From: a virus
Direction: 5' to 3' (one strand)
Virus genome (UHGV): UHGV-0120658
DNA: 39,443 nt
The notes under the pieces were generated by a model. The model was not told the DNA's origin, did not search any database, and saw only the letters and a list, made by a program, of their open reading frames with translations. Within the stretch, counting starts at the first letter, position 1. Each line of letters begins with the position of its first letter. The translations under genes and the position numbers were made by a program. Shown here piece by piece: positions 1,065 to 38,459 of the stretch.

Positions 1065-2096
1065 TCAAAAACTTGCTATTGATGTTGGTAGTGTTGCCAG
1101 CGGATTAAACCGTAATGCAGTTTCCAGGTGATCCGGTGCCAGATGTGCGTAACGCATAGTCATTTTTATATCGTGATGCCCGAGAATTTTTTGTAAGGCC
1201 AGGATATTTCCACCCGACATCATGAAGTGCGCCGCAAACGTATGGCGCAGAACGTGTGTCAGTTGACCGCGAGGGAGCACGATAGACGTTTTTTCCATCA
1301 CGGATAAAAATTGAAAATAGCAGTCTGTAAAGAAATTGAACCCATCAAGCGCCATGATCTCTTCGTAAAGCTCTTTACTGATAGGGATGCTTCTGTTTTT
1401 CTTCCCCTTCGTTCTTACAAAGGTAATTCGGTATTTGGTCACCTGTGAGCGGGTAAGATTTACGGCTTCACGCCAACGTGCGCCTGTGCTTAAGCATATC
1501 TTAACTACCAGTGCCAGAATTGGGTCCTGACGTTTGCAATCAGCCAGCAATTCAACAATCTGCTCATGGGTAAGCCATGCCATCTCTTTTTCTGCGATGG
1601 TGAATTTTCGCATGTTCTCCAGTGGGTTTGGATACGACCATTCGCCCAGGCGGGATAGTTCGCTAAAAACACTACTTAGATAGCTTTGCTCCAGGTTAAT
1701 GGTGACCGGGCTGGCTCCTTTCTTCCATTTCTCGCTGAAGTAGATCTCACCTGTCAGGCGTTTATCTCGATAGTGGGCAAACATTTTAGAGGTGAGATTG
1801 GTTGCAAGAGGATTGCCTAGAGCGTCAACCATCAGCAGCAATTTGTCATAGACATGCTGCCCAGCAGTCAGAGATTTACCATGTAATTTGAACCATAGCT
1901 CAACCACGTCTTTCAGGGTTCGACGATCCACTGATTCGCCCAGCCAGGGCTTTGATTCGGTTTCTTCCATCGTGTGACGCTCAAAAGCCAGTGCTTCGCC
2001 TTTGGTGGCGAATTGTTTACGCACACGACGCCCACTACGTCCGGCGGGGTAACATTCGCAAAGCCATTTTCCTGTGGTGAGTTTTCGTACTGCCAT
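1065..2096 (-). CDS. int: Tyrosine integrase (P2 Int-like)
   Basis: N-terminus MAVRKLTTGKW aligns with remembered P2 Int MAIKKLDDG; C-terminal catalytic signature LRHTFA...GHHDIKMTMRYAHL (R, H-x-x-R, Y). Start chosen at the ATG at 2094-2096, with GAGGG RBS 8 nt upstream on the minus strand. Confidence 0.9.
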   Translation of the reverse strand: MAVRKLTTGKWLCECYPAGRSGRRVRKQFATKGEALAFERHTMEETESKPWLGESVDRRTLKDVVELWFKLHGKSLTAGQHVYDKLLLMVDALGNPLATNLTSKMFAHYRDKRLTGEIYFSEKWKKGASPVTINLEQSYLSSVFSELSRLGEWSYPNPLENMRKFTIAEKEMAWLTHEQIVELLADCKRQDPILALVVKICLSTGARWREAVNLTRSQVTKYRITFVRTKGKKNRSIPISKELYEEIMALDGFNFFTDCYFQFLSVMEKTSIVLPRGQLTHVLRHTFAAHFMMSGGNILALQKILGHHDIKMTMRYAHLAPDHLETALRFNPLATLPTSIASF

Positions 2097-2122
2097 AAAA
2101 AAAGCCCTCATATCAGAGGGCT
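2097..2122 (-). terminator. Hairpin plus U-run just upstream of the int start (candidate terminator for the repressor-orf314 transcript)
   Basis: Stem agccctc (2103-2109) pairs with gagggct (2116-2122), 6-nt loop; on the minus strand it is followed by TTTTTT (2097-2102). Confidence 0.4.
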
Positions 2123-10383: not shown

Positions 10384-11463
10384 GTGGCGTTATCAGATGC
10401 GTTAATTACAGTAAATCAAGCCGAACGGGGCGGTGAAAACGCGTTGAGAGGCTTTTCATATCAAGCCTCTTGGGGGATAAATTATTTACTTGAGAAACAA
10501 AAAGAAAAGGAGAAATATTTATTTCTATTTGAATATCATGACGATATTCTTGTATTGAATTCATCTGTTTCTCCGACTAGTGCTGAGTTTATCCAAGTTA
10601 AAACAAAAAAAGATGGTAAATGGACACTCGCAGCAATAGTGAACGCAACAAAAGCTAAACCTAAATCATTTGTTGCAAAACTATATGACCATTTCTATCA
10701 ATTCGTTGGTCACGAAATTTATATGGTTCTGTTATCGAATGCTGGATTCGATTTCTTAAATGATAATAACGAAAAAGGTAGTGATCTTAATAATGAGCAT
10801 AAGGAAATTATAATTAGTAAGGTTCAAGAGCAGCTAAATACTAAAAAAGAAGTTCCTCTTGATAAAATAAAATTTAAAACATCTGATCTTAGTTTGTTAG
10901 ATCCTAACTCACATTTATACGGGAAAGTTGCAGTTTTTTTGAATTCTTACTTTGGGGATGATCATGGTATTAATTCAACAGCATTCACTAAATTATTAAT
11001 CAATAAGTGTAATGAGAAGGTTAGTGTTGCTTCTAGTGATATCAAAACTTTTGAAGATTTAGTACTAAAGAAAGGTATATCTTCAGAATTTGTAACTGAT
11101 TTATTATCTGGACTCATTGCAAGCATAAAAATAACGCCAAAATGGGAACAGGTTTGTATGTTGCTTGGTACTTTCTCAGATCCTTATGAGGGGATTAAAT
11201 TACAATCAGTTTTTACACGCATATCAATAAAAGTGCTCAATGTCAATTCAATATACTATCTTTATTTTCTGGAATTTCAATCGGCTCTAAAGAGTATAGA
11301 GCATTATCGTGAGATACCTGTTCGAGACCTCTTCTTTACACTCGAAAAAACAATTGCAGCGGGGGACGGGGATTTCTCTTTATTAAATCAAGAAGAGAAA
11401 TTTATGATTGCTATATATGCAATTATAAAGTTGACTTTTGAGGATGTTTCTTATGAAGAATAA
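10384..11463 (+). CDS. Candidate defence effector: PD-(D/E)xK nuclease of the Cap4/DUF4297 type (LmuA-like)
   Basis: AT-rich gene; N-terminal GFSYQ, then FEYHDDILVL...AEFIQVKTKK, i.e. a D...QxK restriction-endonuclease-like catalytic core (about 10540-10602). GTG start with AGGGA RBS; 11-nt overlap with the downstream ATPase gene. Confidence 0.55.
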   Translation: MALSDALITVNQAERGGENALRGFSYQASWGINYLLEKQKEKEKYLFLFEYHDDILVLNSSVSPTSAEFIQVKTKKDGKWTLAAIVNATKAKPKSFVAKLYDHFYQFVGHEIYMVLLSNAGFDFLNDNNEKGSDLNNEHKEIIISKVQEQLNTKKEVPLDKIKFKTSDLSLLDPNSHLYGKVAVFLNSYFGDDHGINSTAFTKLLINKCNEKVSVASSDIKTFEDLVLKKGISSEFVTDLLSGLIASIKITPKWEQVCMLLGTFSDPYEGIKLQSVFTRISIKVLNVNSIYYLYFLEFQSALKSIEHYREIPVRDLFFTLEKTIAAGDGDFSLLNQEEKFMIAIYAIIKLTFEDVSYEE

Positions 11464-13111
11464 CGTTAAATTTAAAAATATAAAAATACTCTCATTAAGA
11501 GACAGAAAAGCTTTTTCTTATGAGTTTTCAGAAGGGGTTAACTTCATATATGGTACAAATGATGTTGGTAAATCAAGCCTGATTAAAAGTCTTTATTACA
11601 CATTAGGTGGAGATTTAAGGCTTGATGATGCTTGGAAATCAGATGATATAGTTACACTGGTGGAAATTAATAACGGGGAAAATGATTTTATTTTTTTGCG
11701 TTATAAAAAGATTATTGGTGTCTTTGATTTGAAGAATGATGATCTAGTCGTGTATAACACGATTTCGTCATTAGCATCTCGTGTTTCAAATATATTTGGT
11801 TTTAAACTGGAATTACATAATAAATATACGGGTGCTACGACTCAGGCAAACCCTGCTTGTTTGTTTGCCCCATTCTTTATTGATCAGGATGAAGGATGGA
11901 AAGCGGTGATAAATTCTTTCGAAAACATGAGTATGTACTCAGAATGGCAAAAAAACATTCTTTACTATCACTCTGGAATTAAGCCAAAGGAATATTATAC
12001 AGTTCAAGGGAAAATCAAAGAAATTAAAGTTAAAATTTCAGAGTTAGATGGTTTTGTTAAGGTTCTAAAAAGAAGCAAAAGTAAGATTGATGAATCTTTT
12101 GGCGTGGTTTTATTTGATGTTGATTTGGATTTTTATAAATCAAAGTTGGAACGTATATTAAATGAATATTCTAATTTAAATTTAGTTCAGACAGAATATA
12201 GATTGAATCTTTTGAGGTTATATTCTAGGAAGAATTTCCTTGAGAGTGAACTCAAAGAGATAACTGCGATTATTGATAATGAATTTGAGATTTCGAATTT
12301 TCGAGATGATAATGTTGCTTATTCAGTAAATGAATATAATTATATAAACCATAGAGATGAAATGCTCAAAAACATTGCTGTTCTTGCAGATGAGAAAAGC
12401 AAGATTGAGGAAAATATTCCTAAATTGAATCAAAAGCTAGAAGAGTCAAGGGCTGCTTCAGAGGCGTTGCAGGCGCTGATTTTAGAAACTCAATCGGAAA
12501 TAACGCTTCATGATGTTATTAAATCTGCCGCATACCATGAAATTGAATCTACTTTTATTTCACAGTTAGATGAGTTATTCGTTGAGATTGGTCGAAAAGA
12601 AGGCGAGTTGACAGAATTACAAGAAGAATTAGAAGTATACAATGATAAGAAAAGAACTGTTAAAATAAATGACTGTTTCAAAGAGTATTTCGCTAAAGCT
12701 CTTAAAGAGCTTGGTGTCGAAAATACAAAGGTAGGTGGCCTTAGTAGTTATAATAATATTACTAAGGGTAAGACTGGTAGTCGAGGTCCTCGAGGTATAT
12801 TTGCATTTCACTACGCGCTGCTTAGTGTTATGAAAAGCAACTCTTCAGTTGAGAATATGCCTATAGTAATAGACTCTCCAAAGCAACAAGATTTGGATCC
12901 AGAGCATACGCATAAGCTTATAAAACTATGCTTGGATGGGTTTTCCCTTACAAATCAGATTATTATTGGAACTGTTGGTTATGAGAGTTTCATGGATGGT
13001 TTTAATAGCATCAAACTTGAAAATAAATATCATCTTTTAAATGATGAACATTATGATAATGTTTATTCTCAATTAATGCCATTGTTTGAACGGGTGATAC
13101 TTTCAAGATGA
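11453..13111 (+). CDS. Candidate defence ATPase: SMC/Rad50-like coiled-coil ABC ATPase (LmuB-like)
   Basis: Walker A GTNDVGKSS near the N-terminus (about 11552-11578), long central heptad-rich region, C-terminal Walker B-like PIVIDSP. ATG at 11453 overlaps the upstream stop (11461-11463). Confidence 0.55.
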   Translation: MKNNVKFKNIKILSLRDRKAFSYEFSEGVNFIYGTNDVGKSSLIKSLYYTLGGDLRLDDAWKSDDIVTLVEINNGENDFIFLRYKKIIGVFDLKNDDLVVYNTISSLASRVSNIFGFKLELHNKYTGATTQANPACLFAPFFIDQDEGWKAVINSFENMSMYSEWQKNILYYHSGIKPKEYYTVQGKIKEIKVKISELDGFVKVLKRSKSKIDESFGVVLFDVDLDFYKSKLERILNEYSNLNLVQTEYRLNLLRLYSRKNFLESELKEITAIIDNEFEISNFRDDNVAYSVNEYNYINHRDEMLKNIAVLADEKSKIEENIPKLNQKLEESRAASEALQALILETQSEITLHDVIKSAAYHEIESTFISQLDELFVEIGRKEGELTELQEELEVYNDKKRTVKINDCFKEYFAKALKELGVENTKVGGLSSYNNITKGKTGSRGPRGIFAFHYALLSVMKSNSSVENMPIVIDSPKQQDLDPEHTHKLIKLCLDGFSLTNQIIIGTVGYESFMDGFNSIKLENKYHLLNDEHYDNVYSQLMPLFERVILSR

Positions 13112-14186: not shown

Positions 14187-15949
14187 AAAATCTCCACAAT
14201 ATTGCTGGTATTGGCGGACTCGCCCTGCAGCGGTTCGTTAAACAGTGCGTGCATTGTTGCCCAGGCCAGATCGGCATGGCTGGCTTCTTCACTGCGGCTT
14301 GCTTCATAGGTCGGGCGGTTGCCGCTGGCGGTGGTTGCGCGACGGATTGCCATAAATGACTGCGCTATGTCGGTGTGTCCGGCGTCAAACTCCAGACGAC
14401 GGTGACTGATAATGTCGTAGGCCTTGAGTACCAGGGCGTTTTTAACGTTGGGGTTGTAGACAAACTCCCGGACGGCTGGAAAAAACGCTTTCACGTTTTC
14501 ATAAACCCCGTGACCGACACCCGTCGAGTCGATGCCGATATAGGTCACGTTGTACTGTTCGGTCAGTTTTTTGATGGCGTCAGCCTGGGCGCGGAAGTCC
14601 ATCCCGCGCCACTGGTGACGCTCAAGAATGCGGAACTTACCGCCCGGCACGGCTGGCGGTGCCACCACCACGCATCCGGCGCTGTCGCCGTTTTGCGTAC
14701 CTTTTGCCGGGTCATAACCGATCCACACCTCGCGCCAGCCAAACGGGCGCAGGGCCAGTGCATGAAAGTCGGTCCAGACTTCCCAGCTGTCCACCATGCA
14801 CGCCTGCAGCTCGCTGAGCGGGAACACGGACGCGAGATCGTCCACGAACTCGCACATCAGCAGGTTCTGGTATTCGTCCGGGCTGTACTCCATGCGCAAC
14901 TGGTCAAGGTCGAACAGGTTACAGCCGCCGCGCACCGCATCTTCCACGGTGACTATCTGGCGGTATTGCCCGTCTGCGCACAGCAGGCCGGGGGCCAGAT
15001 TGCTATGGGACAGGTCGATGTCCACCTTGTCGGCTTTGTTGCGTCCACGGTTGAACAGCGCACCGGACCAGAACGGATAAGCACTGTGTGTCAGGCTGGA
15101 TGGCGTGGAAAAATAGGTTTGTCGCCATTTTTTGTGAATAGCCATACCGGAAGCCACTTTGCGCAGCTCCTGGAATTTCGGTATCCAGAAATATTCATCC
15201 AGATACAGGTTGCCGTGGTAACTCTGGGCCGTGCGGGCATTGGTGCCGAGGAAGTAAAGAGTGGCCCCGTTGGGAAGCACCATCGGATCGCCTTTCAGCT
15301 CCACCTCCACTTCTTTGGCGAAGTCGATGATGTACTGTTTAAAGACGTGGGCCTGTGCCTTACTGGCAGAAAGGAAAATCTGGTTACGTCCGGTTAGCAG
15401 GGCGTCAATCAGGGCTTCACGGGCAAAATAGAAGGTCGCGCCGATCTGGCGTGACTTCAGCAGGTTGCGGATGCGGTTGGTTTTTCCGGCTTCCCACCAG
15501 TGGCACTGGTAGTTGAACATGGAGGAATGGAAGATTTCTTCCAGCTTCTCAATCTGTTCATCGGTGAAAACATTCTTTTCCGGCTGACGGCGCGGGCCTT
15601 TGTTGCGGTTGGCGACGTTAGGGTTTAAGTCGGCTTCGTTGCCGCCATTGTTAAACTTGCCGATCCGCGCGTGGCGCTCCGACTGGCGCGCCAGCAGGTC
15701 AATTTCTTTAAAGTCTTTCCCTTCTTTGTGCTCCTTCATGATGAGCTGGCAGTAGCGTGCGGCGGTGGTGAGCTGCATCTGATCCAGCGGCCCATAGTCA
15801 CCCCACTTGTCGCGTTTTTTCCAGCTGTGAACGGTTGCAACTTTCTCGCCCAGCATTTCAGCAATGCGGGCTACGCGGTATCCCTGAAAGTACAGCAGCA
15901 TGGCCTGCCGACGGGGATCGAGATCTGCGGATGTCAGTGTGGTGTTCAT
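14183..15949 (-). CDS. P: Terminase large subunit, ATPase (P2 gpP-like)
   Basis: 588 aa; terminase-type deviant Walker A LLKSRQIGATF; ATGA overlap with Q. Confidence 0.85.
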   Translation of the reverse strand: MNTTLTSADLDPRRQAMLLYFQGYRVARIAEMLGEKVATVHSWKKRDKWGDYGPLDQMQLTTAARYCQLIMKEHKEGKDFKEIDLLARQSERHARIGKFNNGGNEADLNPNVANRNKGPRRQPEKNVFTDEQIEKLEEIFHSSMFNYQCHWWEAGKTNRIRNLLKSRQIGATFYFAREALIDALLTGRNQIFLSASKAQAHVFKQYIIDFAKEVEVELKGDPMVLPNGATLYFLGTNARTAQSYHGNLYLDEYFWIPKFQELRKVASGMAIHKKWRQTYFSTPSSLTHSAYPFWSGALFNRGRNKADKVDIDLSHSNLAPGLLCADGQYRQIVTVEDAVRGGCNLFDLDQLRMEYSPDEYQNLLMCEFVDDLASVFPLSELQACMVDSWEVWTDFHALALRPFGWREVWIGYDPAKGTQNGDSAGCVVVAPPAVPGGKFRILERHQWRGMDFRAQADAIKKLTEQYNVTYIGIDSTGVGHGVYENVKAFFPAVREFVYNPNVKNALVLKAYDIISHRRLEFDAGHTDIAQSFMAIRRATTASGNRPTYEASRSEEASHADLAWATMHALFNEPLQGESANTSNIVEIF

Positions 15950-15995
15950 GGCACAAACCTACAGCCTTGAATAAAGGCTTTCCCCGCCTGCGGTT

Positions 15996-16013
15996 TGTGT
16001 GGTTGTCGGTACA
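15996..16013. promoter_or_regulatory. Candidate late-activator (Ogr) site TGT-N12-ACA in the P/O divergent region
   Basis: TGTgtggttgtcggtACA centred about 88 bp upstream of the O start codon, as expected for a site at -55 of a P2-type late promoter. Confidence 0.4.
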
Positions 16014-21522: not shown

Positions 21523-21614
21523 AGATTCATGCTTTTGCTAGCTTCTACAAGGTTTTATGCTTCTAAACACTGTATGTTTAATTTGACATATAACTATTTG
21601 TACAAGCGGTGAGT

Positions 21615-22838
21615 ATGAAAAAGCAAGATGAGTCCCCCAAAGCTGATAAATCAAATTTAGATAAAAGTGAGTCTGAACCACCAAAAGCGAACTCTATGGC
21701 AGATGCCATGGCCATAGCGGCAGAGGTTGCTACGACAGCAACGTCAGTTCAAACATCAACCTTTGCAATTATCGCGGATTTTCTACGTTCAGGTGGTATA
21801 GAAAAACTAACTTCAAATGCTATCAAAAATTTAGAAATAAAAGTAAAGGGCCATTCTCAAGCGACAAGAACTACGGTATTGAGGAACCTGAAGACCTCTT
21901 TCAAAGAGGAGAATTTAGTTCTTGTTTTAGGTGCTGGCATTTCTTTAGATTACAGCATACCAACATGGAGTGAATTATTAAAGCGGCTATTGGCAAGAGC
22001 TTTGGATGATAAAAATGAAAATCAGAAAATGGTATCGGTTTTGTTTAATGAGGTTTTCGGTCCGAACGCACTCATAGCAGCCAGATATCTAAAACTACAC
22101 TTTGATGGTATTAATACTCCCTTGGAAAAAGAAATTCAGCATGTTTTGTATGAATATTATCAGGAGGAAGAAAGCAGTACATTGAAAGCAATCAAGAAAT
22201 TGTGCATATCGGCAGGCAAGTCACCAGGTCTAGATTCCGTTATTACATATAACTATGATGATATTTTGGAACAGACATTAACTAGAGCTGATGTTTGTAT
22301 AAAGTATAAGGTGATTTCAAAGACGGGACAGCATGCAAAAAATGATGAACTGCCGATCTACCATGTGCATGGCTATCTCCCATTGCAGGGGAAAGTTGAA
22401 CTCGATGACACGCTAGTCCTTTCTGATGAAAGCTATCATAGGCAATACATGGATTTATACCATTGGAGCAATATGGTTCAGTTGAATAAATTCAAAGATG
22501 GAAATTGCCTGTTTGTTGGTCATTCCTTTACAGATCCAAACCTCAGAAGGTTGATGGATACAGCCAAAAAACTTAGAGGGAATGATTCTAAACCTCATTA
22601 TTTAATTAAGTGTAGACATTCGAAAGAAGATGTGATTGCTAATATTCAAAGAATTGTTAGTGACTCAAGAAATGGATTTGATAATAAACTGAATATTAAT
22701 GAGGATGCAATCGCGACCTCTCTTTTACAGACAGTGCATACTTTTGAAGAAATCGATGCTAATTCATTTGGCGTGAATGTTATTTGGATCGACTCTTACG
22801 ATGAGATTGCACCAATACTTAATGATCTAACACAATAA
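21615..22838 (+). CDS. Standalone SIR2-like (SIR2_2 family) protein; candidate NAD+-depleting defence effector
   Basis: AT-rich gene between S and V. Motifs in family order: LVLVLGAGISLDYSIPTWSELL (GAGIS at 21930-21944), ITYNYDDILE, IYHVHGYL, LVLSDESYHRQY, CLFVGHSFTDPNLRRL. About 100-aa charged N-terminal extension. The track ORF starts at GTG 21609. Confidence 0.65.
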   Translation: MKKQDESPKADKSNLDKSESEPPKANSMADAMAIAAEVATTATSVQTSTFAIIADFLRSGGIEKLTSNAIKNLEIKVKGHSQATRTTVLRNLKTSFKEENLVLVLGAGISLDYSIPTWSELLKRLLARALDDKNENQKMVSVLFNEVFGPNALIAARYLKLHFDGINTPLEKEIQHVLYEYYQEEESSTLKAIKKLCISAGKSPGLDSVITYNYDDILEQTLTRADVCIKYKVISKTGQHAKNDELPIYHVHGYLPLQGKVELDDTLVLSDESYHRQYMDLYHWSNMVQLNKFKDGNCLFVGHSFTDPNLRRLMDTAKKLRGNDSKPHYLIKCRHSKEDVIANIQRIVSDSRNGFDNKLNINEDAIATSLLQTVHTFEEIDANSFGVNVIWIDSYDEIAPILNDLTQ

Positions 22839-22849
22839 TCTCCCTAAGT

Positions 22850-22867
22850 TGTGCCAGAAATGGCACA
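22850..22867. promoter_or_regulatory. TGT-N12-ACA palindrome upstream of V (late-activator site or hairpin terminator of the SIR2-like gene)
   Basis: TGTgccagaaatggcACA; also a 7-bp stem-loop. Its centre is only 57 bp from the V start codon, so assignment is ambiguous. Confidence 0.3.
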
Positions 22868-24745: not shown

Positions 24746-25343
24746 TCTGCTGCCACCGGGTTCAACGCCACTGGAGCGCCGACTGGCGCAAACCTGCAGC
24801 GGGATTTCTGATCTGCAGGTGCCGCTGCGTGACTTGTGGAATCCGGCAACCTGTCCGGTCAGTTTCCTGCCTTATCTCGCCTGGGCGTTCTCTGTGGATC
24901 GCTGGGACGAGGGCTGGACAGAAAGCGTCAAACGTCAGGTGGTGAAGGATGCTTTTTATATTCATCAGCATAAAGGAACCACCAGTGCCGTGCGGCGGGT
25001 GGTGGAGCCGTTCGGCTTTCTGATCCGCATTATTGAGTGGTGGCAGACCGGAGAGGCACCGGGCACGTTTCGTCTGGATATCGGCGTGCAGGACCAGGGC
25101 ATCACTGAAGATACCTATCTGGAACTTGAGCGACTGATAAGCGATGCCAAACCATGTAGCCGTCACATGATCGGCATGTCCATCAACCTGCAGACCAGCG
25201 GCCCGCACTGGGTGGGAGCCGCCAGCTATCTTGGCGAAGAAATCACGATCTATCCGTATATCAACGAAACAATTATTTCCGGCGGCACCGCGCATGAAGG
25301 CGGGGCGGTCCATGTTATTGACACAATGAGAGTGAATCCATGA
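24738..25343 (+). CDS. I: Baseplate/tail protein I (P2 gpI-like)
   Basis: 201 aa between J and H. Confidence 0.75.
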   Translation: MNSLLPPGSTPLERRLAQTCSGISDLQVPLRDLWNPATCPVSFLPYLAWAFSVDRWDEGWTESVKRQVVKDAFYIHQHKGTTSAVRRVVEPFGFLIRIIEWWQTGEAPGTFRLDIGVQDQGITEDTYLELERLISDAKPCSRHMIGMSINLQTSGPHWVGAASYLGEEITIYPYINETIISGGTAHEGGAVHVIDTMRVNP

Positions 25344-26884
25344 GCACAAAATTTTATACCCTGCTGACGGATATTGGCGCGGCGAAACTTGCCAGCGCCG
25401 CCGCGCTCGGTGTGCCGCTAAAAATTACCCATATGGCGGTGGGCGATGGCGGCGGAGTATTGCCGACGCCGGACGCAAAGCAGACTGCACTGGTAAATGA
25501 GAAACGCCGGGCTGCGCTGAATATGCTCTATATCGACCCGCAGAACAGCAGCCAGATTATTGCTGAACAGGTGATCCCTGAAAACGAGGGCGGTTGGTGG
25601 ATACGTGAAGTGGGCCTGTTTGATGAGTCAGGGGCATTGATTGCCGTGGGGAACTGCCCGGAAAGCTATAAACCGCAACTGGCTGAAGGCAGCGGGCGCA
25701 CCCAGACCGTGCGCATGGTGCTGATTACCAGCAGCAAGGAAAATATCACCCTGAAAATCGATCCTGCTGTAGTGCTGGCAACCCGCAAGTATGTGGATGA
25801 CAAGGTACTGGAGCTGAAGGTGTATGTGGATGACCTGATGGCAAAACACCTTGCCGCACAGGACCCACATTCACAGTATGCACAGAAAGAAAGTCCGACG
25901 TTTACCGGGAAACCCAAAGCGCCAACGCCAGCAGCAGGGAATAACACCACGCAGATTGCGACCACCGCGTTTGTTCAGGCGGCACTGATGGCCCTTATTA
26001 ATGGTGCGCCAGCCACACTGGATACGCTGAAAGAAATTGCCGCTGCCATTAATAATGACCCGAAATTCAGTACCACCATTAACAATGCGCTGGCACTGAA
26101 AGCGCCGTTGTCGAGTCCGGCACTCACCGGAACGCCAACAGCCCCCACGGCGGCGCAGTCGGTCAACAATACACAGATTGCCACTACGGCTTTTGTGAAA
26201 TCGGCGATTGCGGCAATGGTGGGTTCTGCACCTGCGGCACTGGATACACTGAACGAACTGGCGGCGGCGCTGGGGAATGACCCGAACTTTGCCACGACAA
26301 TGCTTAATGCACTGGCAGGTAAACAACCGCTGGACAATACGCTGACTAATTTGAGTGGAAAGGATGTAGCTGGTCTTCTCACATACCTTGGTTTGGGAGA
26401 AGGCTCAGCGTTACCCGTTGGTGTGCCTGTTCCGTGGCCTTCAGCCACACCACCAACAGGCTGGCTGAAATGCAACGGTGCACCTTTTTCTGCCGAAGAG
26501 TACCCAAAACTGGCAAAGGCTTACCCAAAGTTAAAATTACCGGATTTGCGCGGTGAGTTTATTCGCGGGTGGGATGATGGGCGAGGTGTTGATTCCGCGA
26601 GACTGCTACTTTCAAGTCAGGCGGCATCTATCCTTGAACATAACCATGAAATGCATGGATGGACAGGGAACCCACTCATGGCTAGAGATGTTTATTCATC
26701 CGGTTCATCCGTATTTGCGGTGCAGTTGAGCATTGGCGATGGCGGGTTATTGTATTCGTGGAAGGATGGGAGTGGAACAACAAATGACAGTAAACGAATG
26801 GATAGAACAAATCATGTCAGTTCCGGCGCCGGTGATGGTAGCCCGCGAAACATTGCATTTAACTACATTGTGAGGGCTGCATAA
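25340..26884 (+). CDS. H: Tail fibre protein (P2 gpH-like); C-terminal part lies in the invertible segment
   Basis: Conserved N-terminus MSTKFYTLLTDIGAAKLA; the variable C-terminal part begins downstream of the inversion site at about 26388. Confidence 0.85.
   Translation: MSTKFYTLLTDIGAAKLASAAALGVPLKITHMAVGDGGGVLPTPDAKQTALVNEKRRAALNMLYIDPQNSSQIIAEQVIPENEGGWWIREVGLFDESGALIAVGNCPESYKPQLAEGSGRTQTVRMVLITSSKENITLKIDPAVVLATRKYVDDKVLELKVYVDDLMAKHLAAQDPHSQYAQKESPTFTGKPKAPTPAAGNNTTQIATTAFVQAALMALINGAPATLDTLKEIAAAINNDPKFSTTINNALALKAPLSSPALTGTPTAPTAAQSVNNTQIATTAFVKSAIAAMVGSAPAALDTLNELAAALGNDPNFATTMLNALAGKQPLDNTLTNLSGKDVAGLLTYLGLGEGSALPVGVPVPWPSATPPTGWLKCNGAPFSAEEYPKLAKAYPKLKLPDLRGEFIRGWDDGRGVDSARLLLSSQAASILEHNHEMHGWTGNPLMARDVYSSGSSVFAVQLSIGDGGLLYSWKDGSGTTNDSKRMDRTNHVSSGAGDGSPRNIAFNYIVRAA
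26376..26401. repeat. Left inversion site (hix/gix-like 26-bp site) inside H
   Basis: TTCTCACATACC-TT-GGTTTGGGAGAA; the half-sites are an imperfect inverted repeat and resemble the remembered Gin/Hin half-site pattern TTxTCxxAAACC. Confidence 0.6.
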
Positions 26885-27487
26885 ATGGAACAGGTTATTT
26901 TGGGAAAAGACGGTTACGCTTTAAATGATGGGGAAATCATCGTACATAACTATGATGGCGAAACGCGGGAATATATTTCCACATCAACTGAATATCTTGC
27001 GGTTGGCGTCGGTATCCCGGCATGTTCTTGTTTAGATGCACCAGTTACACATAAAGCTGGTTATACAATTTGCCGTTCTGTGGATTTAAAATCATGGGAA
27101 TATGTGTCAGACCATCGCGGTGAAATCGTCTATAACACCGAAACGGGAGACGCCAAAGAAATCACAGCTCCGGGTGATTACCCTGAAAATACAACCACTA
27201 TCGCCCCATTAACGCCATACGATAAATGGGATGGTGAGAAATGGGTGACCGATACTGAGGCACAGCATCGCGCCGCAGTAGACGCGACAGAAGCACAGCG
27301 TCAGTCACTGATTGATACTGCAATGGCTTCCATTAGTCTGATTCAACTGAAATTACAGGCCGGGCGGAAACTGACGCAGGCAGAAACAACCCGGCTTAAC
27401 GCTGTGCTGGATTACATTGACGCGGTGACGGCAACAGATACCAGCACCGCGCCGGATGTCATCTGGCCTGAACTGCCGGAGGAGTAG
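26885..27487 (+). CDS. G: Tail fibre assembly protein (P2 gpG-like)
   Basis: 200 aa after H; its C-terminus resembles that of the alternative Tfa on the other strand. Confidence 0.8.
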   Translation: MEQVILGKDGYALNDGEIIVHNYDGETREYISTSTEYLAVGVGIPACSCLDAPVTHKAGYTICRSVDLKSWEYVSDHRGEIVYNTETGDAKEITAPGDYPENTTTIAPLTPYDKWDGEKWVTDTEAQHRAAVDATEAQRQSLIDTAMASISLIQLKLQAGRKLTQAETTRLNAVLDYIDAVTATDTSTAPDVIWPELPEE

Positions 27488-27899
27488 GCCATTCAATATC
27501 TGGTGCACTGGAAGTATCGACCAGCTCCAGTGCGTCCAGATAATCCAGCCACAAATTATATTGCGCCAGTTCCTCACCTTTCAGACGACCAATTGATGCT
27601 TTACCTGGCCATTGTTTACTGTTGATGTATTCGTTGGCCTGGTTAATCAATTGCTGCTTTTTAGTTTCGGCTGATGCAATTTGTTCTTCACGTGTTGGTG
27701 GAGGAACATCTGCCCAAGCTGGCATTCCGTCGCCTGCGGTAATTCTGCGCTTACCTTCGGGCGGCGTGTCATAGAAATATTCCCTGAAAATAGCTTCGTC
27801 TATATCCACGCCTTTACCTTCGGGCCATTGGCCTTTTGCAGCGTAAACAGACTGGAGGGCATAAGGGTACGCCAGATTATCAACATACAAATATTTCAT
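27459..27899 (-). CDS. Alternative tail fibre assembly protein (tfa'), inverted orientation
   Basis: 146 aa on the minus strand, convergent with and overlapping G; C-terminal SAPDIEWPTPP parallels TAPDVIWPELP in G. Confidence 0.7.
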   Translation of the reverse strand: MKYLYVDNLAYPYALQSVYAAKGQWPEGKGVDIDEAIFREYFYDTPPEGKRRITAGDGMPAWADVPPPTREEQIASAETKKQQLINQANEYINSKQWPGKASIGRLKGEELAQYNLWLDYLDALELVDTSSAPDIEWPTPPAVQAR

Positions 27900-27901
27900 A
27901 A

Positions 27902-28231
27902 TTAACGCCCTTTCGCGTAGAAGGCTCCACCTTCAAAGCCATAGTTACAATGAGCAACGAAACCTGTTTTCGTCCAGTTAGTTGCGCCCCACATATTCCC
28001 ACCACCAAAACCGCCGTCATATACAATCACTACGTCTGGCTCCTGCGTAAAAGGAATGGTGAAAGTCACATTTGTAGATACCGCCGCGGCGTTATTCGGG
28101 AAATTAATTCTTCCCCACTGTTCAATTGAACCATCAGGCAATTTTTGCCAGCCAGATCCTGATGAATAAGCTGACATATCAGGTATCTGATTTTCCCCTG
28201 TCCCTACATCCCGTTTTGCCGCCTCTCCCAA
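27902..28231 (-). other. Promoterless alternative tail fibre C-terminal cassette (H'), expressed only after inversion
   Basis: Minus-strand ORF with no ATG, starting at the right inversion site; in frame with the H constant part across the shared GLGE crossover codons. Confidence 0.65.
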
Positions 28232-28248
28232 ACCAACCTTTGAAAATG
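28223..28248. repeat. Right inversion site (inverted copy)
   Basis: CTCTCCCAAACC-AA-CCTTTGAAAATG; the core TCTCCCAAACCAA (28224-28236) is the exact reverse complement of TTGGTTTGGGAGA (26388-26400). Confidence 0.6.
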
Positions 28249-28270
28249 GTCACCTATATAGGTGACCATT
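28245..28270. other. Perfect 26-bp palindrome AATGGTCACCTATATAGGTGACCATT (terminator or protein-binding site)
   Basis: Exact reverse-complement symmetry; sits between the orf140 stop and the right inversion site. Confidence 0.5.
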
Positions 28271-28274
28271 CGGG

Positions 28275-28697
28275 TTAATGCAGCGTTGTAGTTGAGCTGG
28301 ACTCTGCCATTGCCACTGTCAATTCATCGCCTTCGGCTGAGATCTTAATGGTATTACTTCCTTCTGATTTAGCGCCTTTTGGTAGACCTAGCTGATCATA
28401 GATACACAAGAATCTTGAATCATTTATAAAGGTGATTTCTGTTACAGTCCCACCTTCAACGACCTTAGAGTCTATTGATTTTATCAAATTGATATCCTGA
28501 ACATTAATGTGCTTTATCGCATCCCAGTTAAGGCTGATGTCCACGTTATCCTTTTGCATCGTTATCACATGACCGGCCTTATGCTGGGTTGTGACTTTTC
28601 CATCAGGGCTCATCGTAATCTTTTGCCCCATGTGATAAATAATTTGAGTTCCGTCTTCGAGACACTCGATTTTTGGCTCTTTAGTAAAGTCGTTCAT
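28275..28697 (-). CDS. Hypothetical 140-aa protein at the Z/fun-equivalent position
   Basis: AT-rich ORF between the invertible segment and the invertase gene; no recognised motif. Confidence 0.5.
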   Translation of the reverse strand: MNDFTKEPKIECLEDGTQIIYHMGQKITMSPDGKVTTQHKAGHVITMQKDNVDISLNWDAIKHINVQDINLIKSIDSKVVEGGTVTEITFINDSRFLCIYDQLGLPKGAKSEGSNTIKISAEGDELTVAMAESSSTTTLH

Positions 28698-28902
28698 GAA
28701 AATCCTTCAATTATCTGTTGCTGGAAGGTGCTAATCTACACGAATCCTTGGTTATGTATGTAATGAGGCTCTAGAAATCCACTTGAATATAAATAAATTT
28801 TTATGGTGTTGGCTTGTAATGCTCGCGTAGCTCTTTGTCAAAAGTGAAACTCTGATAACCTGGTTCTACTGACGAACAGAAGGATGAGCAGGAGATCGCT
28901 TT

Positions 28903-29463
28903 ATGATTATTGGGTATGCACGAGTATCAAGTAACCATCAGGACACCGAGCTTCAGATGCAGGCGCTCAGAGCTGCTGGCTGTAAGTTAATTTTTGAGGA
29001 AAAGGCTTCTGGCCGTAAGACGAATCGACCAATCTTGAAGAAAGTGGTTGAGATGCTTGAACCCGGTGACGAACTGGTCATCTGGAAGTTAGATCGTATC
29101 GGTCGCAATGTACTGCACGCATTATTGACCTTTCAGAGCCTCGCAGAACGCAATGTTAATATTCGTTCTATTACAGATGGCGTTGACCTGAGCACTGCCA
29201 GTGGGCGCTATAACTTCCGTAATATTCTCTCTGCGGCACAATATGAGTCTGATCTGAATAGTGAACGCACTCTGGCAGGGTTAGCGGTTGCCCGCGCTAA
29301 GGGGAGGATTGGCGGACGTAAGCCTAAGTATACTGATGAGCACTGGGATGCGTTTGAACGGGAAATTAAGTCCGGCTGCTCACATCGTGATATAGCTCTC
29401 AAATATGGGGTCGGCCTGTCGACTCTCTACAAACGTTATCCGCCTCAGCAAGAGCATCACTAA
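28903..29463 (+). CDS. Serine recombinase, DNA invertase (Hin/Gin/Pin/Cin family)
   Basis: N-terminal catalytic domain MIIGYARVSSNHQDTELQMQAL with the active-site serine in RVSS; C-terminal HTH. Confidence 0.85.
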   Translation: MIIGYARVSSNHQDTELQMQALRAAGCKLIFEEKASGRKTNRPILKKVVEMLEPGDELVIWKLDRIGRNVLHALLTFQSLAERNVNIRSITDGVDLSTASGRYNFRNILSAAQYESDLNSERTLAGLAVARAKGRIGGRKPKYTDEHWDAFEREIKSGCSHRDIALKYGVGLSTLYKRYPPQQEHH

Positions 29464-29599
29464 ACACTCTTTGCGTTCATTTTTGCACTGTGCAGAATGT
29501 GTCTTTTTGGCACCTTCTGGCAGTGCAAAATTTATCGCGTTTTGGTGCAAAAAAAATCGCCGCGCTACAATCTGCGGGGATTTTTTTTGCCCCTTCCAT

Positions 29600-29617
29600 T
29601 GTGCCATTCTCCACACA
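29600..29617. promoter_or_regulatory. Candidate late-activator site TGT-N12-ACA upstream of FI
   Basis: TGTgccattctccacACA centred about 84 bp upstream of the FI start codon. Confidence 0.4.
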
Positions 29618-29691
29618 TAGCCCGGTGCGTGCGCAGTGCGCATATCAACCAGAACATAGGCAGACACCCTGTAAACCGGAGAGACTGCCTT

Positions 29692-30864
29692 ATGGCTCAG
29701 GACTACCACCACGGCGTGCGCGTTGTTGAAATCAACGAGGGCACCCGATCCATTACCACGGTGAGCACCGCCATTGTGGGCATGGTATGCACCGGCGATG
29801 ATGCTGATGCGTCCATGTTTCCACTCAATAAGCCGGTTCTGCTGACCGATGTGTTGACCGCCAGCGGTAAAGCGGGCGAGTCCGGCACGCTGGCCCGTTC
29901 GCTGGATGCGATTGCAGACCAGGCTAAACCCGTGACCGTCGTTGTACGTGTGGCGCAGGGCGAAACCGAAGCGGAAACCACCTCCAACATTATCGGCGGC
30001 GTGACCGCTGACGGTAAAAAGACGGGCATGAAAGCGCTGCTTTCGGCGCAGTCGCAGCTCGGCGTCAAGCCGCGCATTCTCGGCGTGCCGGGACACGACA
30101 CGCAGGCGGTTGCCACTGAGCTGCTGAGCGTGGCGCAGAGCCTGCGCGGGTTTGCTTATCTGTCCGCCTATGGCTGCAAAACGGTGGAAGAAGCGATTGC
30201 CTACCGTGACAATTTCAGCCAGCGCGAGGGGATGCTGATCTGGCCTGACTTCATCAACTTTGACACCGTGCTGAATGCAGATGCGACGGCTTACGCCTCC
30301 GCTCGTGCGCTCGGCCTGCGTGCCAAAATTGACGAGCAGACCGGCTGGCACAAAACCCTGTCCAACGTGGGCGTGAATGGTGTCACCGGCATTTCCGCTG
30401 ATGTGTTCTGGGATCTGCAGGACCCGGCAACCGATGCGGGACTGTTGAACCAGAACGACGTCACCACGCTTATCCGCAAAGACGGCTTCCGCTTCTGGGG
30501 TTCCCGCTGCCTCAGTGACGATCCGCTGTTTGCCTTTGAGAACTACACCCGCACGGCGCAGGTGCTGGCTGACACCATCGCAGAAGCGCACATGTGGGCG
30601 GTGGATGGCGTGCTTAACCCATCGCTGGCCCGTGACATTATCGAAGGTATCCGCGCCAAGCTGCGCAGCCTGAAAGCGCAGGGTTACATCATCGGCGCAG
30701 ACTGCTGGCTGGATGAGTCGGTGAACGATAAAGACTCCCTGAAAGCCGGGAAGCTCACTATCGACTACGACTACACGCCGGTGCCGCCGCTTGAAAACCT
30801 GATGCTGCGCCAGCGCATCACCGATCAGTACCTGCTGGATTTCTCCAGCCAGGTCAGCGCGTAA
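29692..30864 (+). CDS. FI: Tail sheath protein (P2 gpFI-like)
   Basis: ATG at 29692 with GGAGAG RBS gives 390 aa, close to P2 FI; the track ORF from 29497 is an upstream extension. Confidence 0.85.
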
Positions 30865-36773: not shown

Positions 36774-38459
36774 TTATCCTAATCCTGGCCATACCATGAC
36801 GATGATTGTCCCTGCCAGCGTCAGCAGGACGTTGGCGATTGCGTAGGTGCCCGCATAGCCCAGCGCAGGGATGTTACTGCGAGCTGTATCACTGATGATC
36901 TCCATTGCCGGCGCGCAGGTGCGTGCGCCCATCATTGCGCCGAACAACAGTGCGCGGTTCATTCGCAATACATAAGCACCGAACAAGAAACAGATAACCA
37001 CGGGCACAAGACTGACAATTAATCCGGCAATCAACATCTGACCGCCAATCGCGCCCAGGCCGTTATTAATACCGCTACCGGCGCTCAGACCAACGCCTGC
37101 CATAAACACCATCAAGCCGAACTCTTTCACCATGCTTAATGCACCTTGCGGAATGTAACCGAAGGTCGGGTGGTTAGCACGCATAAAGCCCAGCATAATT
37201 CCGGCGAATAACAACCCGGCAGCGTTCCCCATGCCGAAACTGAATGTGCTGAACTGGAAGGTGATCATCCCGATCATCAGCCCAATAACAAAGAAGGCGC
37301 AAAATGCCAGCAGGTCAGTGACCTGGCTGTGAATCGAGATAAAGCCGATGCGATCGGCGATGGTTTTTACGCGACGGGCATCACCGCTGACTTGTAAAAC
37401 GTCACCTTTGTTAAGCACGACGTTGTCATCTATCGGCATCTCAATCTGGCTACGAATGACGCGGTTAAGGAAGCAACCGTGATCGGTCAACTTCAGTTGT
37501 GCGAGACGTTTACCTACAGCGTTATGGTTTTTAACGACCACTTCTTCAGTGACGATACGCATGTCGAGAAGGTCACGATCGAAAACTTCTTTACCGTTAC
37601 GGAAGCTGGGATCGAGTCGGGCATGGGCGTCGGGATAGCCTACCAACGCTATTTCATCGCCCATTTGTAGCACGGCATCACCGTCTGGATTTGCCAGAAT
37701 CCCGTTACGTCGAATACGTTCAATGTAGCAGCCGGTTTGTCGATAAATACCCAGTTCACGCAGATTTTTGCCGTCGGTCCAGGCCACCAGCTCCGGGCCG
37801 ACGCGATAGGCGCGGATCACCGGTAAATAAACCTTACGGTTGGCATCAGTGTCCAGGCCACGTTCGCGGGCGATTTGCTGGGCGCTGGTCTGTAAGTCCT
37901 GATGCTGCAATTTCGGCAAGTAACGCGCACCAACAATCAAACTCACCAGACCGATTAAATAGGTTAAGGCATACCCGAGGCTCAGATTATCCAGTGCCAG
38001 TGAGAGCTGCCTGCTTTCCATGCCGAAATGACGCAGTGTATCGCCAGCACCGACCAGAACCGGTGTCGACGTCATAGAGCCTGCTAACATACCGGCCGTC
38101 AGGCCAATATCCCAGCCAAACAGCTTACCTAACCCTAAGGCGATCACCAGCGCACTGCCAACCATCACCAGTGCTAACATTAGGTAATTTTTCCCATCGC
38201 GAAAAAAAATGGAAAAAAAGTTCGGTCCGGCTTCGACCCCGACGCAGAAAATAAACAGCATAAAGCCAAGATTAAGCGCATCGGTGTTAATGCTGAAATG
38301 TTGTTGGCCTAATAACAGCGATACGACTAAAACGCCAATGGAATTACCCAGTTGGATCGAACCAAGTCGTAACTTTCCGAGACATAGCCCAAGCGCGAGG
38401 ACCACAAATAATAACAGAATGTAATTCCCATTTAACAATTCGGCGACGTTTATATTCAC
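36774..38459 (-). CDS. ybjL: AAE-family transporter YbjL; host gene at right prophage flank
   Basis: 561-aa polytopic membrane protein [28 protein letters not shown] with central soluble domains; recognised as E. coli YbjL. Confidence 0.85.

Follow-up and report, generated by a model that had tools for sequence, protein, structure and literature searches.

In P2-like phages the interval between the tail-fibre assembly gene G and the sheath gene FI, known as moron position 2, hosts an AT-rich gene lying on the opposite strand (PMC3573123). The interval is a hotspot of mixed purpose, in which receptor-binding-protein swaps, invertases and defence-like cargo have been found (10.1101/2024.10.15.618418). 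The occupant in P2 itself is fun(Z), a non-essential AT-rich gene, the product of which blocks T5. Another occupant is neaT of the E. coli CFT073 prophage b0847, a single rare AT-rich gene located on the opposite strand between the fibre assembly gene and FI, which sets a precedent for a host-fitness role of cargo at the G/FI site (PMC3573123). The corresponding slot has been analysed here in the virus genome UHGV-0120658, a stretch of 39,443 nucleotides (nt) hereafter called the window. The slot hosts an open reading frame (ORF) of 140 amino acids (aa), ORF140, and a perfect palindrome next to its 3' end (Table 1). A preliminary description, drawn from the DNA letters, had reported an AT-rich ORF flanked by the invertible tail-fibre segment and the invertase gene, at the Z/fun-equivalent position, with a 26-bp palindrome 3' of it. 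All these assignments are borne out, and the ORF lies outside the invertible segment.

ORF140 and the palindrome are best explained as a classic moron of the G/FI (Z/fun) hotspot, encoding a product that probably protects the lysogen. Taken whole, this reading has in our judgement an even chance of being right. The anatomy of the insert is very probable; the protective function, be it exclusion or immunity exerted by a stoichiometric binding protein or inhibitor, is suggested by position and context, and is a tentative proposal somewhat short of evenly probable.

As fun(Z) in P2, ORF140 follows the tail-fibre and assembly genes, precedes the late promoter pF and the sheath gene, is encoded on the opposite strand, and is AT-rich, non-essential cargo. 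G+C content is 40.7% in ORF140 and 38.5% in the intergenic region upstream of it, 53% in the tail-fibre gene H and 60% in the sheath gene. The likeness extends to the 3' end. The 3' end of fun(Z) in P2 has an annotated rho-independent terminator at a distance of 8 nt, and that of ORF140 has a hairpin at 4 nt, at the same convergent junction; the T-run of the P2 terminator faces the late V operon, whereas that of the ORF140 hairpin faces the cargo gene. Unlike the P2 slot, the one in the window also holds an invertible segment and an invertase gene. ORF140 is not a homologue of Fun(Z), as the best BLASTP match to the latter (NP_046777, 528 aa) has E=1.6 over 18 residues. An exclusion function similar to that of Fun(Z) may be proposed from the position of the gene. 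The likeness to neaT similarly concerns location and base composition: NeaT is a membrane acyltransferase (PF01757), whereas ORF140 is small, soluble, predicted to be all-beta, and carries no enzymatic signature.

The insertion emerges from comparison with loci lacking the ORF. The same silent fibre cassette is found in an ordinary P2-like prophage (L005). Both there and in an e14/Mu-like locus (L004) the invertase gene is located directly past the right crossover site, at 27-55 bp, and no ORF is found in between; in the window cargo gene and hairpin stand between the two, and supply the outer part of the right half-site. A plasmid-borne remnant (L015) features a 96% identical invertase along with its 89-bp upstream region, and lacks ORF140. 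Homology of the remnant to the window resumes at about 28814, and on the other side comprises just AACCTTT at the crossover core. Since the palindrome, ORF140 and about 116 bp upstream of it are all missing from L015, they are regarded as an insert of about 570 bp (~28242-28813), from which the right half-site draws its outer 7 bp. ORF140 is thus part of extra DNA interposed between genes that are adjacent in related phages, and its G+C content deviates from that of the backbone, as expected for a moron.

ORF140 is found along with the palindrome and the same invertase allele in all 3 complete E. coli genomes that carry it, and rides in a 1.34-kb module (28235-29570) bounded by the crossover core and by a hairpin located past the invertase gene. 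The module is 99.5-100% identical in P2-like backbones and in backbones with Mu-like tails. Copies have been identified in a Citrobacter murliniae prophage (L006, 7130-8468), which is inserted at the yojI-alkB-ada locus and has a Mu-like tail module (GpP/gp44-like hub, Baseplate_J), and in the IMG/VR contigs L019 (1822-3157) and L020. The flanks of the Mu-like-tail prophages yielded one blastn match to the window, which lies in the tail-fibre-assembly region of L006 (151 bp at 84% identity). The sequence shared with L006, L019 and L015 stops at 29569-29570, inside the second of the two hairpins 3' of the invertase gene. In the Citrobacter Mu-like-tail prophages the module is found at the prophage end, directly after a single fibre/assembly gene pair, and the stop codon of the fibre-assembly gene abuts the crossover core (TAG GAACC TT). 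In the E. coli E41 prophage hosting ORF140 (L001, 4156-4853) an IS1A element is located inside the invertible segment, and probably inactivates one cassette.

The palindrome (AATGGTCACCTATATAGGTGACCATT; repeat I11) is made of perfect 13+13 arms with zero spacer, and begins 4 nt past the ORF140 stop codon. It is the longest perfect palindrome of the window; arms of 13 nt were reached in 0/200 block shuffles, and the analytic expectation is ~6e-4 per window. It had been described as abutting the right inversion site, and in fact overlaps it, sharing with it the tract AATG (28245-28248), which makes up the outermost 4 bp of the site. The palindrome accompanies ORF140 at all the loci found. The sequence of eight loci is the same through '...CCATT TTCAAAGG TT', past which it immediately diverges into different fibre cassettes. 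Because constancy ends exactly at the central dinucleotide of the crossover, the palindrome belongs to the ORF140/invertase side, which answers the question, raised in the preliminary description, of what it is conserved with.

Two roles had been envisaged for the palindrome, a terminator or a binding site for a dimeric protein. The first, that of a terminator or insulator, is the better supported. On the ORF140 sense strand the sequence can fold into a 12-bp stem (5 G-C pairs) with a 4-nt AUAU loop, followed by UUUUCAAAGG / UUUUCAAAGGUU; the fold, calculated over 56 nt, has an energy of -22 kcal/mol (z=-3.9; z range -3.9 to -4.5). On the opposite strand the same stem is followed by CGGGUUAAUG, which includes no U-run. 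Any termination would serve ORF140, because the U-run is found only on its sense side. Of the canonical features of intrinsic terminators, the stable G+C-containing stem-loop is present; the second, at least five U within 8 nt after the stem, is missing, and 2-3 U's of UUUUCAAAGG can pair in the stem. Stand-alone homologues of ORF140 (L008, L010) end at unrelated GC-rich hairpins followed by U-runs, a homologue from Raoultella (L021) has a hairpin directly past the stop codon, and the P2 terminator occupies the same junction. Nothing speaks for the binding site: repeats of the palindrome half-site elsewhere in the window do not exceed chance, and a repeated operator can be dismissed. The interval 27800-29800 includes no Rfam-type RNA family near threshold. 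That the hairpin marks the 3' end of the ORF140 transcript seems to us fairly likely.

The overlap with the crossover site, and the linkage to the invertase, may also be read as signs of a joint function. ORF140, the palindrome, or both would act along with the invertase, the protein as accessory or regulatory factor, the palindrome as a protein-binding or cruciform element modulating the degenerate half-site. ORF140 is indeed found only beside one invertase allele, from which it diverges across a shared 205-bp region, and the pair is mobile together; the palindrome covers 4 bp of the 26-bp crossover, and the insert provides the outer 7 bp of the half-site. However, the 96% identical invertase of L015 is found without ORF140, and distant homologues have no adjacent invertase. 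The palindrome half-site, besides not being repeated in the window, is unlike the crossover half-site. Invertases of the Hin/Gin/Cin/Pin type need only Fis and an enhancer. Hitch-hiking between crossover and invertase gene accounts more simply for the linkage, and a role in inversion is very unlikely.

The organization of the region is that of a P2-like prophage, as the window features late-promoter motifs and baseplate, tail-fibre, sheath and tape-measure genes. The inversion system is of the Din family. As in the Mu Gin/G segment, P1 Cin, e14 Pin and Salmonella Hin systems, the invertase is a serine recombinase with Resolvase and HTH_7 domains; it differs at one amino acid from WP_003030312.1 (99.5% identity). 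The crossovers are likewise 26 bp long and share the same central dinucleotide, one is located in the fibre gene, and the segment carries alternative Hv/U cassettes. Inverted 12-bp half-sites flank 2-bp cores (TT and AA), and the two sites are mutually inverted. A 13-nt core within the left site is the perfect complement of 28224-28236 (repeat I8). The region 26843-28241 is 92.8% identical at the DNA level to the L004 locus, where the counterpart of the active assembly gene is annotated as tail fiber assembly protein. Beginning at the crossover site, the silent cassette Hv' lacks a start of its own, and is annotated as gp53-like domain protein in many E. coli genomes. In the right site the inner half depends on the cassette, and the fixed, degenerate outer half is part of the ORF140/invertase side. 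The hairpin element is therefore unaffected by inversion, as its U-tail sits in the fixed outer half-site. The possibility that ORF140 is a third tail-fibre C-terminal cassette, raised in the preliminary description, is discarded, since the ORF is placed on that side of the crossover which stays fixed, is equipped with an ATG and a ribosome-binding site of its own, and encodes no fibre domain.

ORF140 and the invertase gene diverge from an AT-rich intergenic region of 205 bp (28698-28902). Past the invertase gene, the second of the two hairpins consists of an A-run, a stem and a U-run, and includes a terminator-like site (29560-29577); flanked as it is by A-run and U-run, it resembles a bidirectional terminator. 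The TGT-N12-ACA motif found next marks the return to the phage backbone, and P2 has an activator-binding site at the matching relative position. Motifs of the same type are located upstream of gene V (22850-22867) and in a divergent region (15938-16013); altogether these motifs fit the expected Ogr-activated promoters pF, pV and the divergent pP/pO pair.

Table 1. Position of ORF140, the palindrome and neighbouring features in the UHGV-0120658 window
Feature	Position	Strand	Remarks
Integrase	1065-2111		
Tail-fibre gene H	25340-26884	+	
Left crossover site, inside H	26376-26401		TTCTCACATACC TT GGTTTGGGAGAA; 19/20 specified Din-family consensus positions
Active tail-fibre assembly gene (U/G-like), 3' of H variable part	26885-27487	+	from ORF list
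Silent assembly gene U' of alternative cassette	27459-27899	-	Pfam Caudo_TAP, E=2.2e-31
Silent fibre C-terminal cassette Hv'	27902-28234	-	Pfam Gp53-like_C, E=1.3e-8
Right crossover site	28223-28248		CTCTCCCAAACC AA CCTTTGAAAATG; 14/20 consensus positions
Palindrome	28245-28270	-	perfect, 26 bp
ORF140	28275-28697	-	140 aa, ATG start
Insert-specific region upstream of ORF140	28698-28813	-	AAGGA ribosome-binding site and AT-rich putative promoter region
Invertase upstream region	28814-28902	+	common to ORF-less L015, 96% identity from 28814 on
Serine DNA invertase, Hin/Gin/Cin/Pin type	28903-29463	+	186 aa; Pfam Resolvase E=2.8e-37, HTH_7 E=6.4e-6
Two strong hairpins 3' of invertase	29481-29591	+	146-nt fold -59.8 kcal/mol, z=-7.4
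TGT-N12-ACA motif of Ogr-dependent late promoter pF	29600-29617	+	upstream of sheath gene
Tail sheath gene	from 29692 (ATG)	+	
Host permease gene	36774-38459		

ORF140 is a real gene. A ribosome-binding site judged good (AAGGA, 28707-28703) precedes the ATG by 5 nt. The product is identical to WP_003030314.1, annotated as 'hypothetical protein' in three complete E. coli genomes, which are the only carriers among the 5426 complete genomes of the species (3/5426). The exact sequence was found in 816 contigs from Escherichia, Citrobacter and Kluyvera, and the ORF is intact in every close relative found; the disruption that, according to the preliminary description, would speak against a functional gene was not seen. 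Close copies differ at 0-1 nucleotides within ORF140, and selection analyses of them are uninformative for this reason. Evidence comes from distant relatives. In 5.8 billion proteins the family amounts to eight clusters at 90% identity, which are confined to Enterobacterales, with identities down to ~27%. One 90% cluster was retrieved by a word-indexed search of the 5.8 billion proteins. An exhaustive phmmer search of 1.84 billion representatives yielded three true relatives, P0016 (38% identity), P0017 (42%) and P0018 (33%), and after two rounds of profile search P0020 (Serratia plymuthica), P0021 and P0022 (Raoultella ornithinolytica) joined the family. A 538-aa fish protein made of immunoglobulin repeats (P0019), also retrieved by the exhaustive search, was set aside as a spurious, repeat-driven similarity, and a 140-aa ORF adjoining the invertase gene at the Raoultella locus L021 is unrelated to ORF140. 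No match to ORF140 was found by tblastn in the phage and plasmid collections. Locus scans with an alignment of 3 sequences found only close copies, and the alignment of 7 sequences was too divergent for such scans.

Full-length homologues sharing 27-38% identity preserve length and register. Conserved positions are EDGTQII near the N-terminus, GH at 42-43, F90, N92, C98, G104 and G123, a pattern of the kind left by purifying selection on a protein. These data bear on the hypothesis that ORF140 is a non-functional hitch-hiker, and the palindrome a product of chance or an insertion scar. The close copies are so similar that purifying selection cannot be measured among them, and no function or family has been found, as the hypothesis would have it. 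Against it, the divergent homologues keep the motifs (EDGTQII, GH, F-x-N, C, G) as well as the full frame, ORF140 has a good ribosome-binding site, and a palindrome far beyond chance is located exactly where a terminator is expected. We consider the hypothesis extremely unlikely.

The ORF140 product is acidic (pI 5.1) and hydrophilic overall, and no signal peptide, membrane or hydrophobic segment was detected by inspection. The absence of recognisable motifs reported in the preliminary description stands, as no family above threshold was found in Pfam, PHROGs, PADLOC or NCBIfam, the sole exception being a sub-threshold likeness to the Tcp10_C (G-box) repeat. Several family members reach Tcp10_C (PF07202) below threshold, the best being P0022 (23.9 bits vs a gathering threshold of 36); no such match was reported for ORF140 itself in the Pfam scan. 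The family profile matches CPAP sequences with E=0.003. Two AlphaFold2 runs, based on 7 and 8 sequences, gave the same all-beta secondary structure, with a mean predicted local distance difference test (pLDDT) of 63-64 and a predicted template modelling score (pTM) of 0.44-0.54. Residues 9-55 are the best modelled, and residues 114-140 fall outside the models; addition of the eighth sequence brought no gain in confidence. G-box entries rank on top in Foldseek searches of the PDB, at non-significant scores, and nothing significant was found in the BFVD library of viral structures. In these models the N-terminal half would be a G-box-like hairpin repeat, forming a single-layer beta-sheet with a surface of the type that binds peptides or proteins; it resembles the G-box, and is not a member of the family. 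The C-terminal half is predicted to be a beta domain of uncertain fold, and has no counterpart in the TCP10 G-box of CPAP/SAS-4 (PF07202; PDB 4bxp, 4ld1). Because the G-box belongs to a eukaryotic centriole protein, the likeness concerns the type of fold and repeat, not membership or function.

Alternatively, ORF140 might be an accessory structural or assembly part of contractile injection machines, an add-on to the baseplate or spike of a phage tail or of a type VI secretion system (T6SS). Spike folds did turn up in the structural comparisons, but with root mean square deviations of 4-8 A, at the level of generic beta-meanders, and there is no PHROGs match. The gene lies on the strand opposite to the late operons, with no late-promoter motif, is AT-rich, and is found in 3/5426 complete E. 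coli genomes, whereas P2-like tails are common. A part in such machines is exceedingly improbable.

All the relatives of ORF140 sit in accessory or conflict contexts. Raoultella P0022 (147 aa) is encoded at the end of a lambdoid prophage, after an invertase-dinI-umuDC array. P0022 has a convergent neighbour in 6/6 recovered contigs (10001-11407 of L021, and L022-L026), which is 266 aa long where the contig shows it whole; it matches DUF5677 below threshold only. The two genes may form a unit. In two T6SS clusters (L007 and L009) the gene directly following tssE (TIGR03357, above cutoff) is another relative. In L007 the gene next to the homologue is ImpA/TssA-like by eye. In L009 (1-2264) two genes precede tssE. 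One corresponds to the 395-aa C-terminal part of a protein ending YVTYTIPPGKPLKVWEGRAGTQ...GGAVQIVLD, toxin-like by eye; the other, a 359-aa gene lying just upstream of tssE, is possibly the immunity partner of the toxin-like gene. Neither product matches Pfam or NCBIfam. The homologue is separated from the effector-like gene by tssE and a 156-aa gene.

These associations suggest that ORF140 could be an orphan immunity-type protein, directed against T6SS or other polymorphic toxins, by which lysogens survive the attack of their neighbours. The linkage of two relatives to tssE, and the toxin-like and 359-aa genes of L009, fit this hypothesis, as does the product, small, acidic and cytoplasmic as many immunity proteins are. 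But an adjacent effector gene is lacking both in the window and in L007, and the two T6SS contigs, being near-identical in tssE, amount to a single independent association. The start codon is missing from the L009 copy, the other relatives are found in phage or mobile-element contexts devoid of T6SS genes, and no known immunity family is matched. The hypothesis, as a whole, is unlikely.

The Serratia relative is convergent with a gene encoding a 2758-aa polyvalent protein with LPD/MuF_C domains (L010, 933-9209). A 194-aa ORF of L008 (1555-2139) is a remnant of this polyvalent-protein gene, internally deleted so that the N-terminal 60 aa are joined to the C-terminal 80 aa. Polyvalent proteins are a class linked to counter-defence in phages and conjugative elements, and ORF140 could accordingly be a counter-defence protein, which for example sequesters a host defence protein, and aids the phage or mobile element rather than the lysogen. 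A small acidic product of a single gene, with a predicted fold of the binding type and no enzymatic motifs, would suit such a task, and the Serratia and L008 relatives adjoin the polyvalent-protein gene or its deleted remnant. The cargo of the prophage points elsewhere. A two-gene Lamassu system (LmuA/LmuB, 10384-13111) is located at the P2 old/tin hotspot, between the replication gene A and the portal gene Q; LmuA has a Cap4-nuclease/DUF4297 domain (PADLOC E=4e-143), and LmuB matches with E=8.6e-254. A third cargo site, between the tail-completion genes and the baseplate gene V, hosts a 409-aa SIR2_2-domain protein (21609-22838) with weak ThsA/LmuA-SIR2-like PADLOC matches; E. coli E41 (L001) has an annotated SIR2 family protein in the same position. 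The old/tin hotspot of P2-like phages and the P4 satellite hotspot have already been a source of new defence systems. The other hotspots of the prophage thus hold defence, not anti-defence, cargo, and ORF140 would be transcribed from its own region, opposite to the late genes, at a classic site of lysogenic conversion rather than in an early operon. Counter-defence is quite unlikely.

The moron reading can be set out as follows. An accessory unit of about 570 bp (~28242-28813) was inserted into the G/FI cargo hotspot, with the right crossover site on one side and the invertase gene on the other. Transcription of ORF140 would run leftward, starting in the AT-rich region upstream of the gene and without need of the Ogr-activated late promoters, and for this reason the gene is probably expressed in the lysogen. 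No TGT-N12-ACA (Ogr-type) motif is found in 28698-28902, and ORF140 is accordingly excluded from the Ogr-dependent late genes. The palindrome would fold in the mRNA as a 12-bp hairpin past the stop codon, forming the 3' end of the transcript, and would block read-through, which otherwise would run in sense through the silent Hv'/U' genes and in antisense through the active fibre genes. Being placed in the fixed outer half-site, the U-tail UUUUCAAAGG would act in the same way in either orientation of the segment. Use of the upstream region as promoter and efficient termination at the hairpin are, we infer, features of the unit. Having landed between the crossover site and the invertase gene, ORF140 is mobilised along with the tail-fibre invertase, and travels with both as the 1.34-kb module, recently transferred between unrelated phage backbones. 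The product, soluble, acidic and predicted to be all-beta, would bind another protein stoichiometrically, conferring exclusion or immunity, be the opponent a rival phage, a mobile element or a toxin injected into the cell; its role would be neither enzymatic nor virion-structural.

Several observations weigh against this reading. The protective role is argued from position and context, and no defence, immunity or anti-defence family is matched by ORF140; in PADLOC-DB 2.0 neither ORF140 nor four relatives match a defence protein at E up to 1. The strict linkage to one invertase allele could mean an inversion-related function, and the gene is dispensable in L009, since its T6SS-linked copy has no start codon. 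The structural models are of moderate confidence only, and leave residues 114-140 uncovered. The module is near-identical everywhere, and close copies consequently provide no evidence from covariation, for the hairpin, or from the ratio of nonsynonymous to synonymous substitutions (dN/dS), for the ORF. When the full stem is formed the U-tail is reduced to UUUU or to a single U, and the palindrome site was not called in a consensus terminator scan. In the 205-bp AT-rich region upstream of ORF140 sigma-70-like matches are only weak (8-9/12), and the perfect TTGACA found on the minus strand (28840-28835) has a poor -10 partner, TACAAG (28817-28812). The TTGACA lies in the region common to L015, and the TACAAG straddles the insert boundary. 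The pair may be a promoter created by the junction.

The moron category and the G/FI hotspot are known, and the uncharacterised protein family is the only really new element. A broader proposal can be made, which is quite unlikely to hold in full. ORF140 would be the founder of a family of single-gene G-box-like beta-sheet inhibitors, serving anti-phage exclusion or toxin immunity in the conflicts among mobile elements of Enterobacterales. The family member described here would have a dedicated vehicle, and be carried by invertase-mediated or site-adjacent recombination from one phage to an unrelated one; its terminator hairpin would double as part of a half-site, so that cargo expression is physically coupled to fibre switching. 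Should ORF140 prove to have no phenotype, it would be one more orphan moron with a terminator. It is, in any case, a clean and easily cloned single-gene candidate, from a family lacking annotation anywhere and located throughout in accessory regions of Enterobacterales, and its placement between crossover and invertase shows how cargo hitch-hikes on tail-fibre inversion modules across phage types. An exclusion or immunity phenotype, if true, would define a new protein family, with a fold unusual for bacteria.

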